DNA of 64,000 bases from Candidatus Dormiibacterota bacterium (GTDB lineage: Bacteria > Chloroflexota > Dormibacteria > Aeolococcales > Aeolococcaceae), in the NCBI GenBank assembly GCA_963718525.1, contig OY970355.1, positions 2,784,001 to 2,848,000 of the forward strand, read 5' to 3'. The notes beneath the pieces are model-generated. The model was given only the letters and a program-made list of their open reading frames with translations, made no database searches and had not been told where the DNA came from. Every line of letters starts with the position of its first letter. Positions within the stretch are counted from its first letter, which is position 1. This document shows, piece after piece, positions 5,795 to 11,372 of this stretch. The position numbers and the translations under genes are program-made.

Positions 5795-7045
5795 GTGCCG
5801 AGTCCCATCGCCGAGACCCTGGCAGTGCTGCTCCTCGCCGGGACGTTGGCATGCGCCATCGGGCGCCCGCGCGGATTGCCGGAAGCGGTTGTTGCGGTTC
5901 CTGCCGCCGGTCTGCTGCTGGTGCTCGGTGTCCTGCCGCTCGGGCAAGCTGGTACTGAAGCCGGCGGGCTTGGACCGACCATCGGCTTTCTCGCGGCCGT
6001 GCTCGCCCTCGCCAATCTCTGTGATCGCCACGGACTGTTTGAGGCTGCGGGATCGTGGATGGCCGCCGGCTCCGGCGGAAGACCGGTTTCCTTGCTCGTC
6101 CTCGTCTTTGCCGCGGCCAGCGTCGTCACCGCGGTGCTGAGCCTCGACGCGACTGTCGTGTTGCTCACACCGGTCGTGTTTGCGACCGTTGCGCGGCTCC
6201 GCCTCCGGGCAAAGCCGCACGTATACGCGTGCACGCATCTCGCGAACTCCGCGTCGCTGTTGCTGCCAGTCTCGAACCTCACCAACTTGCTGGCATTCGG
6301 CGCGAGTGGTCTATCGTTCGCTCGATTCGGAGCAACCATGGCACTCCCGTGGCTGGCCGCCATCGGCGTCGAATGGTTGGTGTTTCGCCGTTTCTTTGCT
6401 GGCGACCTGGTTGGCCGCGGTACTGCCCGCGATATCAAGCCGCTTCCGGTACCAGCGTTCGCGGCCGTCGTGGTTGCGCTCACGCTCGTCGGCTTCTTCG
6501 TCACGTCGGCCTTCAATGTCAGCCCGGCATTCGCGGCGCTCGCCGGCGCACTGGTCCTTGCCGCACCTGCAATTGCGAGCCGGAAGACGAGTCTCCGGGC
6601 CATTGCGATGTCGATCGACATCCCATTTCTCGCGTTCGTGCTGGCACTCGGGCTGATCGTGAAGGCAATCTCGCTGCACGGCCTGGGCTCGCTCGTGGCC
6701 CACGTCGTTCCGGGAGGTGCCGGCCTCGGTTCGCTGCTGCTCATCGCTGTCATCGCAGCCGTGCTCGCGAACGTGATCAACAATCTGCCGGCGGCGCTGT
6801 TGCTCATCCCTGCAGTCTCGGGGGCAGGCGCAGGCCCCGTGCTCGCCGTGCTCATCGGCGTCAACACCGGACCCAACCTCACCTATGTGGGCTCGCTGGC
6901 CACATTGCTCTGGCGGCGGGTGCTCATCCGCCGCGGCGAGGAGTTGCCGATCTCCGAATTCATCCGCCTCGGCGCCCTCACGGTGCCGCCAGTGCTCGTG
7001 GCCGCGACCGTCGCGCTGTGGATTTCGCTGCGATTGGTGGGTTAA
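5795..7045 (+). CDS. arsB: ArsB/NhaD-family (ion transporter superfamily) permease
   Basis: Polytopic membrane protein; ANSASLLLPVSNLTNL and NTGPNLTYVGSLATLLW motifs; adjacent ars genes. Confidence 0.8.
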   Translation: MPSPIAETLAVLLLAGTLACAIGRPRGLPEAVVAVPAAGLLLVLGVLPLGQAGTEAGGLGPTIGFLAAVLALANLCDRHGLFEAAGSWMAAGSGGRPVSLLVLVFAAASVVTAVLSLDATVVLLTPVVFATVARLRLRAKPHVYACTHLANSASLLLPVSNLTNLLAFGASGLSFARFGATMALPWLAAIGVEWLVFRRFFAGDLVGRGTARDIKPLPVPAFAAVVVALTLVGFFVTSAFNVSPAFAALAGALVLAAPAIASRKTSLRAIAMSIDIPFLAFVLALGLIVKAISLHGLGSLVAHVVPGGAGLGSLLLIAVIAAVLANVINNLPAALLLIPAVSGAGAGPVLAVLIGVNTGPNLTYVGSLATLLWRRVLIRRGEELPISEFIRLGALTVPPVLVAATVALWISLRLVG

Positions 7046-7609
7046 TGTCGCCCATGAACATCGTCATCTGGATCGTCGAGGGAACCTGGGAAGGTTGCGT
7101 CGACGCGGCGCTCGCGCACTTTCCGGCAGATGCACACTTCACGCTCCTGCACGTGACGCCTTCGGACGTTACGGAGGCAGCGGGCGCGGCGAGCGCCGGC
7201 CTCTTCGGGCGCGCGTTCGCAGGGCGGAAACCAAGCCAACGCTACGACGATATCGCCGACGACGAGGCCTCAGAGTTGCTCGCCGCGGCCGCGCGGCGGG
7301 TTGGGCAACCCGACGTTGAGTTGATCAGTCGACGCGGTCGCATCGAACGCGAGGTGGTAGACGCCGTCGCTGAAGCGGTCGATGTTCTCGTGGTTGCGCG
7401 TGACGGCGATCACTCGCGGCTCGGACCAAAGAGCCTCGGTCACGCAACCCGCTTCGTGGTCGACCATGCCCCCTGCGCTGTGCTCCTGGTCTGGCCGGAC
7501 GAGAACTCCGGGCATCGAGTCGATACCCCCGCCGAAGCACGGTCGGCCTCGAGGGCACGGACCGCCCCCGAAGCACAATCCACCGCCGCACGAGCGCCGC
7601 GACCGCTGA
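7045..7609 (+). CDS. Universal stress protein with an apparent 1-nt insertion at ~7504
   Basis: USP C-terminus LGHATRFVVDHAPCAVLLVWP; removing one A gives ...ETPGIESIPPPKHG...RDR* ending at 7609. Confidence 0.8.
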
Positions 7610-7653
7610 CCCTTGCCGGGCGCCTTCGGAACCGGGTTCGGGCGCAGGGCGGT

Positions 7654-9042
7654 CTATTGCCGCAACCCGGCGACCGAGCGAACCCAGGTCTGGGCACCGA
7701 TCTGCATCGCGTCCCAAGGGCTGCCGAGCGGCGGTGTGTACGAGAGGTCGAGGTCGTTGAGCGACTCGACCGACATCTCGTTGTAGATCGCGGTTGCGGC
7801 GATGTCGATGCGCTTCGCCACCTCGGCGTGCTGGTGGCCGAAGAGCTGCACGCCAAGCAGCCTGCCGGTCCGCCGGTCGCCGGTCCACCGCATGGCGATC
7901 CGATGCGAGCCGGGGTAGTACGCCTTGTGGTCGTCGGCTTCGGACGCGACCGTCACCGGGTCGAAGCCGGCGCTCGCGGCCTCGTGATCGCGCAATCCCG
8001 TCCGCGCAGCGGCCATGTCGAAGATCTTCACGACCTGGGTTCCGAGGCTGCCGGCGAACTCTCGGCTGCCCCCGAGTGCGTTCTCACCGGCGAGGCGTCC
8101 TTGCTTGTGGGCGGTCGTACCAAGCGGAACATATGTCGCTCCGAGCAAACGATGGTGAGTCACCACGCAGTCGCCTGCCGCGAAGATATCCGGCAGGTTG
8201 GTGCGCATGGTCCGGTCGACATCGATCGCCCCTCGGATTCCCAGCCGGGCACCGGCACGTTCGGCCAGGGCAACGTCGGGTCGCACCCCCGCGAACACCA
8301 GAACGATGTCGGCGTCTCGCTGCAACGGCACGCCCTCGCGCGACATGCCGTCGACGCGCAGTCGTGTTCCGTGCTCATTGCGCGTGATGCGACGCACGAC
8401 GGTGTCCGTCACGATCTCCACCCCGTGTGCCCGTAGCTCGGCCGCCACGGTGGCTCCCAGGTCGGCGTCGACCGTCGGCAGCACCTGGGGAAGCTGTTCG
8501 ACCTGGGTCACGTCGAGGCCGCGAACGGTCAGGGCGTCAGCCATCTCGAGGCCGAGGTAGCCGGCGCCGATGATCACGGCAGTCCTTGGGGCAGCCGCAG
8601 TCAGAGTGCTCATGACCCCGAAGGTGTCCCCCATCGAATGCACGACGTGGACGCCGTCATCGGGGCCGAGATGATCGAGCCCGTCGATCGGCGGCCGTAC
8701 CGGAAGGGCGCCGGTGCCGATCACCAGGGCGTCGTACTTGATGACACTCGAAGTTCCGGCCGCGTCTCGGACCTGCACCTCGTGTGCGCCCGGATCGATG
8801 CGTTCCGCCGTCGTCCGCAGATGGAGACGCATGCCGGTCGCCTCCAGGTCCGCGATGCTGCGGTGCGCCAGGCTCCGCCAGTCGGGCACCTCGCCCGACA
8901 CGTGGTACGGAATACCGCAAATGGAAAAGTTCGGGTAGTCGTCAGCGACGATGACATCCACATCGGCTTCTGCGGCAAGCTCGCGGGCGCGCAGCGCCGC
9001 GCTGATGCCTGCATCGCTGCCGCCGATGGCGACGAGACGCAT
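7654..9042 (-). CDS. FAD-dependent oxidoreductase, CoA-disulfide reductase/NADH oxidase family
   Basis: GGSDAG FAD motif, NFSICGIPY active-site Cys, GAGYLGLE, DLSYTPP. Confidence 0.9.
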   Translation of the reverse strand: MRLVAIGGSDAGISAALRARELAAEADVDVIVADDYPNFSICGIPYHVSGEVPDWRSLAHRSIADLEATGMRLHLRTTAERIDPGAHEVQVRDAAGTSSVIKYDALVIGTGALPVRPPIDGLDHLGPDDGVHVVHSMGDTFGVMSTLTAAAPRTAVIIGAGYLGLEMADALTVRGLDVTQVEQLPQVLPTVDADLGATVAAELRAHGVEIVTDTVVRRITRNEHGTRLRVDGMSREGVPLQRDADIVLVFAGVRPDVALAERAGARLGIRGAIDVDRTMRTNLPDIFAAGDCVVTHHRLLGATYVPLGTTAHKQGRLAGENALGGSREFAGSLGTQVVKIFDMAAARTGLRDHEAASAGFDPVTVASEADDHKAYYPGSHRIAMRWTGDRRTGRLLGVQLFGHQHAEVAKRIDIAATAIYNEMSVESLNDLDLSYTPPLGSPWDAMQIGAQTWVRSVAGLRQ

Positions 9043-9048
9043 TGCGGC

Positions 9049-9543
9049 TCAGGCGCTCAATGCGTCGAAGGCGTCGGCACTCCCTTCGGGAACGGTTGCT
9101 GACGAAGCGCAGCAGTCGCTGGTTGGCTCAGCGGATGCCGTGGTTGCACAACACCCTTCCGTGCCTGTCGCGTCGCTTACGGGAGCATCAGCAAGCACCG
9201 TGTACACCTCCCACCGGGTATCTGCTCCGGTCACCCAGACCTTGTCCTGTAGAGCATGACAGCACGTGATGCCGTCCTCGACATCGGTCCGAAGCCCTTC
9301 CGCCGCCAGGCGCCGTGTTGCGCTCACAACCTCATCAGCCGTGCCCACCTCCACGCCGAGATGATTCAAGGTCCCAGCCTGCGCCGGGTTCTCGAAGAGC
9401 ACCAGCTTCAAGGGCGGGTCCGCGACCGCGAAGTTGGCGTATCCAGGGCGCCGCTTTGCCGGCTCGGTCCCAAAGAGCTTCGAGTAGAAGCTGACAGCCT
9501 CATCGAGATGGCTCACATTCAGCGCGAGCTGCACCCGGCCCAT
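9049..9543 (-). CDS. arsI: ArsI/CadI-family VOC metalloenzyme (C-As lyase-like)
   Basis: MGRVQLALNV, LNHLGVEV, TCCHALQDKVWV; extra C-terminal CC pairs. Confidence 0.88.
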   Translation of the reverse strand: MGRVQLALNVSHLDEAVSFYSKLFGTEPAKRRPGYANFAVADPPLKLVLFENPAQAGTLNHLGVEVGTADEVVSATRRLAAEGLRTDVEDGITCCHALQDKVWVTGADTRWEVYTVLADAPVSDATGTEGCCATTASAEPTSDCCASSATVPEGSADAFDALSA

Positions 9544-9544
9544 C

Positions 9545-9604
9545 TCAGCAGTCGCAGTCGCAGTCGCAGTCGCCGGTGCCGTCGCAGCCGCAATCACAAA
9601 TCAT
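9545..9604 (-). CDS. 19-aa Cys/Asp-rich peptide MICDCGCDGTGDCDCDCDC
   Basis: AGGAGG SD at 9620-9615 upstream of the ATG at 9604; stop 1 nt before the arsI ATG; 7 Cys. Confidence 0.75.
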   Translation of the reverse strand: MICDCGCDGTGDCDCDCDC

Positions 9605-9620
9605 GGTGACCAGACCTCCT

Positions 9621-9688
9621 ATCGATGACCGTCGATTGAACGAATCGCATCCTAGCGTGTTCCATCGAAGACTGTCAATGGGTAGAAT
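9621..9688. promoter_or_regulatory. Divergent promoter with two ArsR-type inverted repeats
   Basis: ATCGA-N6-TCGAT (9621-9636) and CATCGA-N6-TCAATG (9663-9680); minus-strand TTGACA-18-TAGGAT; plus-strand TAGAAT at 9683-9688. Confidence 0.7.
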
Positions 9689-9694
9689 GGGAGG

Positions 9695-10204
9695 ATGGAG
9701 ATGCGGGCCAACGCCATCGCAACCGACGTCGAAGTTCGGCCCTTTCGCGACGATGACTGGCCGGCGGTATCTGCCATCTACGCACAGGGGATCGCCACCG
9801 GGAACGCCACCTTCGAGACCGAGGTCCCCGGATTTGAACGATGGTCGGCAGCGCATGCACCCGAGCACCGTTTTGTGGCGGTTCGCGACGGCGAGATCGT
9901 CGGCTGGGTGGCCGCCGGTCCTGTCTCCGACCGTTGCGCATACGCGGGCGTGCTCGAGCACAGCGTCTATGTGGGTGCGCGAGTTCGTGGGCAGGGTGTT
10001 GGCCGCCGATTGCTTGAGGCCCTGCTCGCGAGTGCCGATGCAACCGGCATCTGGACGGTGCAGAGCGGGATCTTCCCGGAGAATGTCGCGAGTGTTGAGC
10101 TGCATCGGCGCTGCGGATTTCGCGTGGTCGGCACTCGCGAACGCATCGGACAGCTCGATGGTGTATGGCGGGATGTGCTGCTCATCGAGCGTCGCAAGCC
10201 GTGA
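9695..10204 (+). CDS. GNAT N-acetyltransferase, PAT/ArsN1-like
   Basis: IYAQGIATGNATFET, EHSVYV, RGQGVG, IFPENVASVELH; start may be 9701. Confidence 0.88.
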   Translation: MEMRANAIATDVEVRPFRDDDWPAVSAIYAQGIATGNATFETEVPGFERWSAAHAPEHRFVAVRDGEIVGWVAAGPVSDRCAYAGVLEHSVYVGARVRGQGVGRRLLEALLASADATGIWTVQSGIFPENVASVELHRRCGFRVVGTRERIGQLDGVWRDVLLIERRKP

Positions 10205-10554
10205 GCGCTGCCACCAAGTCCGCACTGGCGCCGCTGCGTGTGAAGGGATGCTGCCAGCCGGTTGCGCCGCCGCTTCCTGACGCTCGAGCCGACGAGCTCG
10301 CCGCACTCTGCAAGGCACTCGGCGACCCCACCCGGATTCAGATCCTGAACATTCTCGCGAAAGCCAGCGAGCCGGTCTGCGTCTGTGACTTCACCGCCGC
10401 CTTCGAGCTCGGCCAGCCGACCATCAGCCATCACCTGGCCACCCTCCGAGAAGCGGGCATCGTGACGAGCTTCAAGCGCGGGATCTGGGCGTTCTACCGT
10501 CTCAACCCCGCTATGTCAGCCGCAGCGCGGGCGGCGGTTTCGCTGGTCGGGTAG
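10201..10554 (+). CDS. arsR: ArsR/SmtB metalloregulator
   Basis: KALGDPTRIQIL, VCVCD, QPTISHHL, N-terminal CC; GTGA overlap with the GNAT gene. Confidence 0.9.
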   Translation: MSAATKSALAPLRVKGCCQPVAPPLPDARADELAALCKALGDPTRIQILNILAKASEPVCVCDFTAAFELGQPTISHHLATLREAGIVTSFKRGIWAFYRLNPAMSAAARAAVSLVG

Positions 10555-10631: not shown

Positions 10632-11372
10632 GTGCCCTCCGCCCAATCCGACGCGCTCGCAATCGACGGTCTCATCAATCTCCGAGATCTTGGTGGCTTG
10701 CCGACCTCGTCAGGTGCCAGGACGCTCCGCGGCCGCCTGTTACGGAGTGAATCGCCGCACACCCTAAGTGACGCGGGTTTGCGCGAGCTGCTCGATCTCG
10801 GTATCGGCGCCGTCGTCGATCTGCGTACCACATCGGAACGCGAGAAGCGCCCGAGCCCGCTCGCCGAAGCTGGGGTGCTGACCTCGCACACTCCGATCTT
10901 CACCGACGACGATGACTACCCCGATCACCTCGCCACCGCAGCCGAGGTCTACTGCTGGTGGTTCCGCGAGCGTCGCGACGGCGTCGCAGCCGCGATGGCT
11001 GCGCTCGCCGACGCGCCATCCGCTCCCATCCTTGTGCACTGTCACGCCGGCAAGGACCGCACCGGCGTGATCGTCGCACTCGTGCTGCAACTCGCCGGGG
11101 TCAGCATCGACCTGATCGCAGACGACTACGCCATGAGCGGTGTCCAGCTGGCCGACATGCTCGCTCGTGATCGCGTGAGCGCCGTGGAACGCGGGATGGA
11201 CCCGGTACGCGTCGAGCGGCTTTTCACCGTGCGTCGTGAGGCGATGGTGCAGACCATGGAGTGCGTCGATGCGGAGCACGGCGGCGCCGTATCGTTACTC
11301 CGCGGGATCGGCCTCGACGGCGCCCGCGTGGAGCGCCTGAAGAATCTCCTGCTCAGCCCCACGTGGCCATAG
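10632..11372 (+). CDS. Protein-tyrosine phosphatase family protein
   Basis: NLRDLGG and HCHAGKDRTG (CX5R). Confidence 0.88.
   Translation: MPSAQSDALAIDGLINLRDLGGLPTSSGARTLRGRLLRSESPHTLSDAGLRELLDLGIGAVVDLRTTSEREKRPSPLAEAGVLTSHTPIFTDDDDYPDHLATAAEVYCWWFRERRDGVAAAMAALADAPSAPILVHCHAGKDRTGVIVALVLQLAGVSIDLIADDYAMSGVQLADMLARDRVSAVERGMDPVRVERLFTVRREAMVQTMECVDAEHGGAVSLLRGIGLDGARVERLKNLLLSPTWP

Follow-up and report, generated by a model that had tools for sequence, protein, structure and literature searches.

The prokaryotic metallothioneins of the SmtA/BmtA family (Metallothio_Pro in Pfam) are proteins of about 55 residues with Cys and His ligands, and those of the BmtA type use His for Zn. In Synechococcus PCC 7942, as set out in PMC8790569, the gene for the small Cys-rich metallothionein SmtA lies divergent from that of an ArsR-family repressor, SmtB, and the short stretch between the two genes contains operators of the inverted-repeat type. 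We describe a comparable arrangement, on a much smaller scale, in a stretch of 64,000 nt from Candidatus Dormiibacterota bacterium (assembly GCA_963718525.1, contig OY970355.1, positions 2,784,001 to 2,848,000; hereafter the window), where a short open reading frame (sORF) on the minus strand, predicted to encode a 19-residue Cys/Asp peptide, heads an arsI operon and stands beside a divergent gene of the ArsR/SmtB family. Sequence comparison places this peptide in a family of 13–26-residue peptides rich in CxC or CC, encoded behind an ArsR/SmtB-type operator and a strong Shine–Dalgarno (SD) sequence in Dormibacteria and Gaiellaceae-like Actinomycetota. We suggest, giving the proposal about an even chance, that the peptide is a metal(loid)-induced thiolate peptide resembling a miniature metallothionein, most likely for trivalent arsenic (As(III)) or its monomethylated form (MAs(III)), and coupled to arsI in the window. 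In contrast to the smtB/smtA pair, the peptides found here are a third of the size and show no sequence relation; they lack His (apart from one residue in a single locus, L265, the window peptide itself being His-free) and have aromatic residues in two exceptions only; the sensor has a four-Cys pattern and not the alpha5 His/Asp/Glu site; and in Dormibacteria the gene is coupled to arsenic enzymes. Six members of 20–25 residues matched no Pfam or NCBIfam family at E <= 10, the prokaryotic metallothionein model included, in a search with a 20-residue minimum that left out the window 19-mer.

Other small thiol-rich peptides resemble the window peptide in part. Fungal Cu-metallothioneins such as that of Neurospora, with about 25 residues, about seven Cys in CxC motifs, Gly, Ser, Asp or Asn in between and no aromatic residue, are alike in size, Cys number and motif, but they are eukaryotic, Cu(I)-specific and differently regulated, and no homology is implied. 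MymT, the copper metallothionein of mycobacteria, is likewise a small, once unannotated, Cys-rich, metal-induced cytoplasmic peptide of Actinomycetota (induction being presumed for the peptides described here), but at about 53 residues it is about three times longer and has no ars link. MymT is listed in PMC11672702 among Cu(I)-sequestering proteins, some of whose genes are under a Cu-sensing and not an ArsR-type repressor. The window peptide has the low mass, the very high Cys content in CxC spacing and the lack of aromatic residues and His by which metallothioneins are operationally recognized, and the divergent ArsR/SmtB-family gene beside it is one mark of an ArsR/SmtB divergon. True phytochelatins are made enzymatically by phytochelatin synthase and carry gamma-Glu-Cys linkages, whereas the window peptide is encoded by an ORF with its own SD and start codon, has Asp in place of gamma-Glu and would be joined by alpha-peptide bonds. 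According to PMC4611968, the synthetic phytochelatin EC20 was designed as a binder of Cd, Hg, Zn, Pb, Cu and Ni, and it has also been built into an arsenic-resistance construct. Such (Glu-Cys)nGly molecules are ribosomal alpha-peptides in which an acidic residue alternates with Cys, and the (Asp-Cys)4 end of the window peptide could be taken for their natural counterpart, although the peptides described here are natural, shorter, use Asp and not Glu, have a Gly-Thr or Pro hinge and are under presumed ArsR control of their own. The family is unusual in being extremely small, in being translationally coupled and now and then fused to arsenic enzymes, and in its likeness to engineered (Glu-Cys)n peptides.

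Reading along the minus strand, AGGAGG (9620–9615) is followed by a 10-nt spacer (tctggtcacc), ATG (9604–9602), 19 codons in all, TGA (9547–9545), a single G (9544) and the ATG of arsI at 9543. The elements concerned are:

9545..9604, minus strand: sORF, 19 codons and TGA, encoding MICDCGCDGTGDCDCDCDC
9615..9620, minus strand: SD sequence AGGAGG, 10 nt upstream of the sORF ATG
9548..9592, minus strand: hexamer tandem array inside the sORF (coding strand GACTGC, 7.5 copies, 82% match; Tandem Repeats Finder, 6-nt period)
9049..9543, minus strand: arsI, encoding a 164-residue metalloenzyme of the ArsI/CadI family of vicinal oxygen chelate (VOC) proteins (NF041414, PF00903), starting 1 nt after the sORF stop and lacking an SD of its own

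The ORF proper is thus 60 nt long, the range 9545–9620 including the SD, and its codons are ATG ATT TGT GAT TGC GGC TGC GAC GGC ACC GGC (GAC TGC)x4 TGA. Seven of the 19 residues are Cys (37%) and six are Asp; every Cys is in CxC spacing, and there is no adjacent Cys pair, no aromatic residue and no His. The SD, the codons and the counts of Cys and Asp are as the original prediction had them, and, as it also observed, program-made ORF lists contain the peptide only as the tail of a 257-residue ORF or, in another frame, within an extended arsI (182 residues), an extension that we reject below. Among 1615 SD-led ORFs (10–40 codons after AGGAG or GGAGG) in the 3.34-Mb single-contig genome, the window sORF is the only one with at least six Cys, the counts being 854 ORFs with no Cys, 492 with one, 190 with two, 63 with three, 13 with four, two with five and one with seven; its Cys content stands out beyond chance expectation. 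Outside the window, a 22-codon SD-led ORF with five Cys (VGFTVCDACATLNGCCRVCAAE; C1:373080-373148, minus strand) is the sole other ORF in this set with no more than 30 codons and at least five Cys. In a near-identical strain, represented by a contig of one public run (X2), six bases corresponding to one GACTGC unit are missing at 9548, which keeps the frame and leaves (DC)3 instead of (DC)4, an in-frame variation in repeat number.

To follow the sORF through related arsI loci, the best 80 of 298 relatives (L001–L080) were compared, and statistics on the peptide use the window together with L001–L027 (28 loci; ArsI identity 73–87%), which are mostly labelled Dormibacterota, four having other third-party annotation (TPA) labels; the closest arsI relatives are metagenome-assembled genomes (MAGs) of Candidatus Dormibacterota. 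All 27 Dormibacterota-type relatives have an SD-led ORF of 15–25 codons whose stop lies 1 nt (25 loci) or 2 nt (two loci) before the arsI start, and AGGAG is found in 28/28 loci at 4–12 nt from the start codon (measured in L008 at its ATG). Length varies across these loci while frame, SD and stop position are fixed. The peptides have 5–10 Cys in 26 of the 27 relatives (27/28 with the window), the exception being L021, in which the ORF and the 1-nt gap are retained and Cys is down to two; its Tyr is also the only aromatic residue among the 28 peptides. No comparable SD-led Cys-rich ORF precedes arsI in L028–L080 (0/53, all Actinomycetota by label), two of which carry unrelated Cys-free short ORFs. 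As a side observation, five loci with TPA labels of Saccharimonadales, Acidiferrales or Binatia (L005, L017, L019, L274 and L298) have ArsR, ArsI and sORF of the Dormibacterota type at 73–80% identity, which may reflect mislabelling, misbinning or transfer of the cassette between lineages.

The 28-peptide alignment has an invariant first Cys column (28/28) encoded by TGT in 16 loci and by TGC in 12; the central Gly is retained in 26/28 with GGC, GGA, GGT and GGG all in use, and the Thr after it in 21/28 with four codons. Residues between the Cys are Asp, Glu, Asn, Gly or Pro, and two sequence types can be told apart, M-x-C-D-C-G-C-D-C-(D/G)-G-T-(C/G)-D-C-x-C-x-C and M-(D/E)-C-(E/N)-C-P-(D/E)-G-T-C-P-C-(D/E)-C-G-C-x-C. 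Since codons change synonymously at the conserved Cys, Gly and Thr columns and the perfect hexamer array is missing in most relatives, selection acts on the peptide and not on the DNA repeat. We therefore regard the sORF at 9604–9545 as a real, previously uncalled gene for a predicted 19-residue peptide.

The gene at 9543–9049 scores above the equivalog cut-off of the ArsI_CadI_VOC model (NF041414, 185 bits against 116), with position 1 of the profile at residue 3 of the product, and it retains the vicinal Cys pair, ITCCHA in the window aligning with ACCHA of chain 5dfg_A; it is accordingly a predicted enzyme of the ArsI/CadI family. Against the solved chains 5dfg/5c4p, which we take to be ArsI of Thermomonospora (they are entered in the database simply as proteins of the glyoxalase family), the match is at E 3e-39 and residue 1 of the window protein (MGRVQL) aligns to MSRVQL, the first native residue. 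These start points decide against an ArsI extended at its N-terminus by use of GTG at 9597 (the 182-residue ORF). The arsI frame is often open upstream, but in 3/28 loci it lacks a start codon after the SD, in 14 loci with a longer SD-to-ATG spacing its first GTG is 17–19 nt from the SD, and the loci with a 2-nt gap place the sORF and arsI frames in a different relation. A fusion of sORF and ArsI by +1 frameshifting was likewise rejected, since across gaps of 1, 2, -1 and 8 nt one single frameshift could not join both frames. The notion that there is no gene here at all, only a chance ORF arising from a microsatellite of GACTGC or else the beginning of a longer ArsI protein, draws on the hexamer array and on that GTG; it is refuted by the comparative data, namely the retention of the ORF in 28/28 loci, mostly without a perfect repeat, together with the arsI starts and gaps just described, and its probability is negligible.

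An SD-like 4-mer lies 4–18 nt before arsI in 1/28 loci with the sORF as against 52/53 loci without it, and the gap between sORF stop and arsI start is 1–2 nt in 38 of 40 arsI-linked loci (one of the 38, L232, being taken from a separate ORF reading of the pattern matches described below), the values seen overall being 1, 2, -1 and 8 nt. The lack of an SD together with the 1–2-nt gap is the anatomy of termination–reinitiation and points to translational coupling, through which the arsI start would be reached from the sORF. In the sORF-bearing lineage arsI has, to judge from these loci, given up its own ribosome-binding site, and in the window operon the sORF is the predicted sole ribosome entry for arsI, a second role beside the peptide. 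The case of L021, which lost its Cys and kept the ORF and gap, indicates that this coupling role can outlive the Cys residues. The original prediction had described an uncalled short coding gene and an SD-less arsI coupled to it, and had proposed looking upstream of arsI relatives; both descriptions are borne out by the comparison, which finds a Cys-rich SD-led ORF with stop–start coupling in 26/27 Dormibacterota-type and 0/53 actinobacterial loci, and the contrary outcomes that it had named (relatives without the ORF, a repeat in random frames, an arsI starting further upstream) did not materialize.

The same coupling could mean that the sORF is mainly a regulatory leader, the translation of its seven Cys codons, or a metalloid bound by the chain as it emerges, tuning the flow of ribosomes to arsI while the released peptide has no role. 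The placement of an SD-less arsI 1 nt past the sORF stop, by which the sORF would gate arsI translation, fits this explanation, as does the persistence of ORF and gap in L021 after its Cys had decayed. A precedent is given in 10.1101/834739 by the mycobacterial polycysteine sORFs, which are unannotated, leaderless first cistrons that affect translation of the next gene and act as Cys-responsive attenuators, having consecutive Cys codons, preceding genes of Cys metabolism and unmasking a structured ribosome-binding site. The window differs from these in each respect: its sORF is SD-led and has alternating Cys codons, the genes downstream are outside Cys metabolism, and the SD-less arsI offers no ribosome-binding site to unmask. 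As to RNA structure, the 146-nt leader folds more weakly than its shuffles (z = +1.15), the 28-sequence alignment contains no conserved structure at the junction (five weak pairs, all downstream inside arsI, with no compensatory pair), and no terminator-like site was found. In addition, conservation with synonymous codon changes extends to positions other than Cys (Gly, Thr, Asp/Glu, Pro), and 31 + 19 loci, described below, have the cassette with no co-directional gene downstream to regulate. The pure leader or attenuator model fails on four counts, namely cassettes that stand alone, the missing RNA structure, an sORF start led by an SD and conservation outside the Cys, and a mainly regulatory role seems to us rather improbable.

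Upstream of the sORF the region between the divergent genes contains the following:

9649..9678, minus strand: promoter-like site, TTGACA (9678–9673), 18-nt spacer, TAGGAT (9654–9649), with 10/12 consensus matches
9659..9668, minus strand: operator box 1, TCGATGGAAC, a putative ArsR half-site inside the promoter spacer just after the -35 element, recognized by conservation
9621..9636, minus strand: putative operator box 2, ATCGACGGTCATCGAT, an inverted repeat ATCGA-N6-TCGAT between the -10 element and the SD, recognized by conservation
10165..10554, plus strand: repressor of the ArsR/SmtB family (CC at the N-terminus, CVC in alpha3), presumed regulator of the divergent promoters (NF033788, 88.3 bits, cut-off 55)

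The promoter-like site is the only one in 7400–10300 (0.2 expected from shuffles), is separated by 17 nt from position 9695, where the divergent arsN1-like gene starts, and has its predicted -10 element ending 45 nt upstream of the sORF ATG; the positions of TTGACA and of TAGGAT/TATGAT are conserved in L001–L027. Box 1 takes the form (C/T)GTCGATGGAAC in Dormibacterota-type loci and TCATCAATG/TCATCGAC in Gaiellaceae-type loci, and ATCGAC-N4-(A/G)TCGAT is conserved between the -10 element and the SD as a putative operator. The description of the sORF as the first cistron behind a TTGACA/TAGGAT promoter carrying ArsR-type boxes therefore appears sound. A divergent ArsR gene is present in 24/27 related arsI loci and in 87/95 of the pattern loci that have an ORF, and in an alignment of 88 cognate ArsR sequences the alpha3 C-(V/T)-C is found in 88/88 and the two N-terminal Cys positions in 86/88 and 78/88. 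Ahead of the conserved motif RVKGCC, conservation of ArsR is poor, and its true start may hence be further downstream; as called from first start codons, arsR and the arsN1-like gene overlap by 40 nt.

With the conserved CC and C-x-C each ArsR monomer would offer four thiolates, which indicates a thiophilic inducer, the pattern fitting As(III) and Cd/Pb alike. A four-Cys arrangement of this kind resembles the alpha3N Cd/Pb site of CadC. The ligand of the same kind of peptide could hence be a soft metal (Cd(II), Pb(II), Zn(II) or Cu(I)), the peptide being a classical metallothionein under a CadC/CmtR/SmtB-like sensor and the arsenic link secondary. Besides the sensor, this explanation is favoured by a weak match of the window ArsR to CmtR (NF047906, 43 bits, below the cut-off of 150), by the double name ArsI/CadI of the enzyme family, by about 50 standalone loci without an arsenic gene beside the peptide, and by the response to zinc of the known ArsR-family/metallothionein pair smtB/smtA (PMC8790569). 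However, all identified co-directional partners of the peptide are arsenic genes (arsI in 40 loci and two fusions, arsM in two, arsC-like genes in two), the window also holds ArsN1-like and ArsB-like genes, and the peptides are without His except for the one in the standalone L265. We consider a soft-metal ligand unlikely, though its probability is appreciable.

Those partners emerged in part from a search of the whole genome collection with an operator–SD–peptide pattern (ATCGACNNNNRTCGAT, 0–8 nt, GGAG, 8–22 nt, TGYRANTGY), which gave 107 loci, with ATCGACNNNN(A/G)TCGAT immediately before the SD recurring across them, as against none for the complement-pattern control. Twelve of the 107, mostly in unrelated taxa, have no in-frame start codon and three have ORFs that are not Cys-rich; the rest are Cys-rich. 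Merged with the arsI set these make 98 distinct rows, or 100 loci when each of three identical sORFs found in different MAGs is given a count of its own, with the following contexts:

40 loci: coupled to arsI, including the window and the degenerate L021
2 loci (L301, L290): in frame with ArsI, no stop
2 loci (L260, L274): heading arsM with a 7-nt overlap (NF008823, 290 and 306 bits, cut-off 263)
2 loci (L203, L298): heading arsC-like genes of the low-molecular-weight protein tyrosine phosphatase type, below equivalog cut-offs
31 loci: next feature a convergent ychF, 0–240 nt away
19 loci: Cys-rich, no co-directional neighbour identified
1 locus (L213): stop lost
3 loci (L218, L296, L300): not Cys-rich

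Family members have 4–10 Cys in 13–26 residues. In the fusion L301 (a 170-residue ORF) the stop region is replaced by extra codons before a GTG, in frame into ArsI, and L290 seemingly has one extra base compared with its relatives. By label, the standalone loci belong to MAGs of Gaiellaceae, 'Actinomycetes' or Actinomycetota; GC hairpins follow several of the 19 neighbour-less ones (L212, L238, L265), two Trp occur in L215, and M-A-(G/E)-C-C-D-C-P-P-D-C-C-P-(D/A)-G-C-C exemplifies one subfamily. Variable sites at codon positions 1, 2 and 3 number 1/0/3 and 0/2/5 in two such subfamilies and so lie mostly at the third position. In L085, an Actinomycetota MAG, a divergent 126-residue ArsR is accompanied by TTGACG and ATCGACATCCGTCGAT, then by GAAAGGAGG with a GTG six bases on; the sORF, VAKCDCGCDCDCDCEGGCCC, ends in TGA and is followed by a 12-bp GC hairpin and the 3' end of a convergent ychF. 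In Gaiellaceae-type loci (L204, L207, L224, L246, L248, L253, L263, L279, L303 and others) the sORF stop abuts or overlaps the convergent ychF stop (0 nt between alignments), so the convergent transcripts must overlap. Two genomes have two cassettes each, L021 with L291 in palsa_859 and L015 with L302 in palsa_857, and in the former the arsI-linked copy is the one that lost its Cys, retaining ORF and 1-nt gap, while the standalone copy is intact. In the phylum sample the strict pattern was found in 5/401 GTDB-phylum genomes, all in the window's own family, a count that includes the unpublished genome G173, on which the second-genus count rests; since the pattern fixes one operator spelling, 5/401 is a floor and lack of a match does not mean absence.

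A plain scan for the coding motif CDCGCDC returned at least 120 matches; among the matches listed these are mostly Cys-rich C-terminal tails of larger proteins, only L085 and L106 (on the contig of L003) being relevant here. Such tails, among the same matches, occur on Streptomyces, Kitasatospora and Nocardia proteins of about 360–470 residues (L084, L086, L087, L093, L097, L099 and about 35 more), which start with ..FGI(V/I)RPC.HRL.. and end in long stretches of nearly only Cys, Asp, Gly, Asn and Glu (e.g. ..CDGCDCGCDCGC), and on Clostridia proteins of about 140–175 residues, which start M-T-L-T-E-K-V-A-Y-L-K-G-L-A and likewise end in (DC)n.

The remaining genes around the window sORF are:

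7654..9042, minus strand: third cistron, a 462-residue pyridine-nucleotide-disulfide oxidoreductase resembling CoA-disulfide reductase (Pyr_redox_2, 179.9 bits; TIGR03385, 312 bits, below the cut-off of 579)
9695..10204, plus strand: divergent GNAT acetyltransferase, ArsN1-like (146.6 bits with NF040503, short of its cut-off of 170), found in 15/27 related loci
10632..11372, plus strand: protein tyrosine phosphatase of the Y_phosphatase3 family, after arsR (PF13350, 184 bits), present in 7/27 related loci
5795..7045: ArsB/CitMHS-type permease

The reductase gene begins 6 nt past the arsI stop, and such a flavoprotein follows arsI in the window and in 12/27 related loci. Searches of the window's own genome (88.9% complete) gave no match for the glutathione markers GshA and GshB, and the mycothiol markers all scored below cut-off (MshD, 39 bits; MshA-like, 341 against 462; MshC-like, 393 against 485); that none of the five models passes its cut-off in an 88.9%-complete genome is suggestive only. 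Both observations would suit a peptide that binds no metal and serves instead as a redox or thiol-buffer substrate of the flavoprotein, or as the precursor of a modified peptide. Yet the reductase is missing from 15/27 arsI loci; in L085, the sole standalone locus whose neighbours were read (the others were not searched for a reductase), the sORF is flanked only by arsR and ychF; the neighbours examined include no maturase-like gene; and the placing of the gene under a metalloregulator speaks for a role connected with metals. We hold this explanation to be quite improbable.

Returning to the metal(loid)-induced thiolate peptide, the standalone loci have a metalloregulated promoter whose only cargo is a peptide of 13–26 residues with 30–55% Cys, which argues that the peptide itself is the functional product. 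As(III) or MAs(III) is favoured as its ligand since all identified co-directional partners are arsenic enzymes of As(III)–thiol chemistry (ArsI, ArsM, ArsC) and ArsN1-like and ArsB-like genes lie in the window. Of the two functions offered by the original prediction, a free peptide is preferred over a pure leader, given the standalone loci, the arsM and arsC-like contexts and the lack of attenuator-like RNA; the more specific suggestion, that it captures the As(III) which ArsI sets free, covers too little, since the peptide also occurs away from ArsI. Several points count against our proposal. The arrangement of Cys in ArsR would suit Cd/Pb equally, and so would the 'CadI' aspect of the enzyme family; in L021, with two Cys and the ORF and 1-nt gap kept, only the coupling role is retained; one of the two ArsI fusions, L290, could be a one-base assembly error; the codon-position counts in the standalone set rest on 4–5 sequences per subfamily; every carrier is a MAG and none a cultured isolate; and the peptides are too short for Pfam and NCBIfam and for structure and complex prediction. 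Sequences also differ widely between subfamilies, so common descent is not demonstrable from the peptides, and kinship between the Dormibacteria and Gaiellaceae types is proposed from their shared ArsR type and operator.

With regard to mechanism, the divergent ArsR, through its N-terminal CC and alpha3 C-x-C the presumed sensor, may sit on the two ATCGA(C/T)-type boxes flanking the -10 element and be released in response to a thiophilic metal(loid), for which As(III) or MAs(III) is the likeliest candidate. Ribosomes would then load at AGGAGG, as the conservation of this site suggests, and make the peptide; after termination at UGA they could re-initiate 1 nt on at the SD-less arsI AUG, and ArsI synthesis would in that way depend on translation of the sORF. 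The free peptide, considering its chemistry and context, would bind As(III)/MAs(III) by its thiolates (seven thiolates could hold two As(III)) and may serve as an inducible miniature metallothionein or carrier, acting beside ArsI here and beside ArsM or ArsC, or alone, elsewhere. ArsD, a folded arsenic metallochaperone of about 120 residues that binds As(III) with clustered Cys and passes it to the ArsA ATPase, is a working model for an ars-operon As(III) carrier serving a partner (here ArsI, ArsM or ArsC), although there is no relationship in sequence or size.

Going one step further, and more tentatively, the peptide could be an undescribed component of ars systems, a thiol carrier of As(III)/MAs(III), encoded by a gene of its own and induced through ArsR, that passes substrate or product between ArsI, ArsM, ArsC and efflux, a possibility that we place well short of even. 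If true, such a carrier would take the place that conjugates with glutathione or phytochelatin have elsewhere and would matter most in lineages in which no glutathione or mycothiol marker is found, and its coupling and occasional in-frame fusion to ArsI would reflect a physical partnership of enzyme and carrier.

The literature (supplements excepted) yielded no description of such a short ORF rich in Cys, either from an ars operon or from these phyla, and we know of no smaller natural gene-encoded metallothionein-like molecule of bacteria and of no earlier peptide component of ars operons. If they bind metal(loid)s, the peptides would therefore be, to our knowledge, the smallest such molecules and the first such component, and the family would supply biosensing and bioremediation with a chelator cassette that is ready for use, optimised by nature and controlled by ArsR. 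The locus also provides a clean natural example of predicted SD-less translational coupling. Finally, gene callers are blind to these peptides, as an exact look-up of ten members of 20–26 residues in a collection of 15 billion proteins (the window 19-mer again lying below the 20-residue minimum) found none of the ten, and inventories of metal resistance in uncultured soil phyla (Dormibacteria, Gaiellales) overlook genes of fewer than 30 codons.

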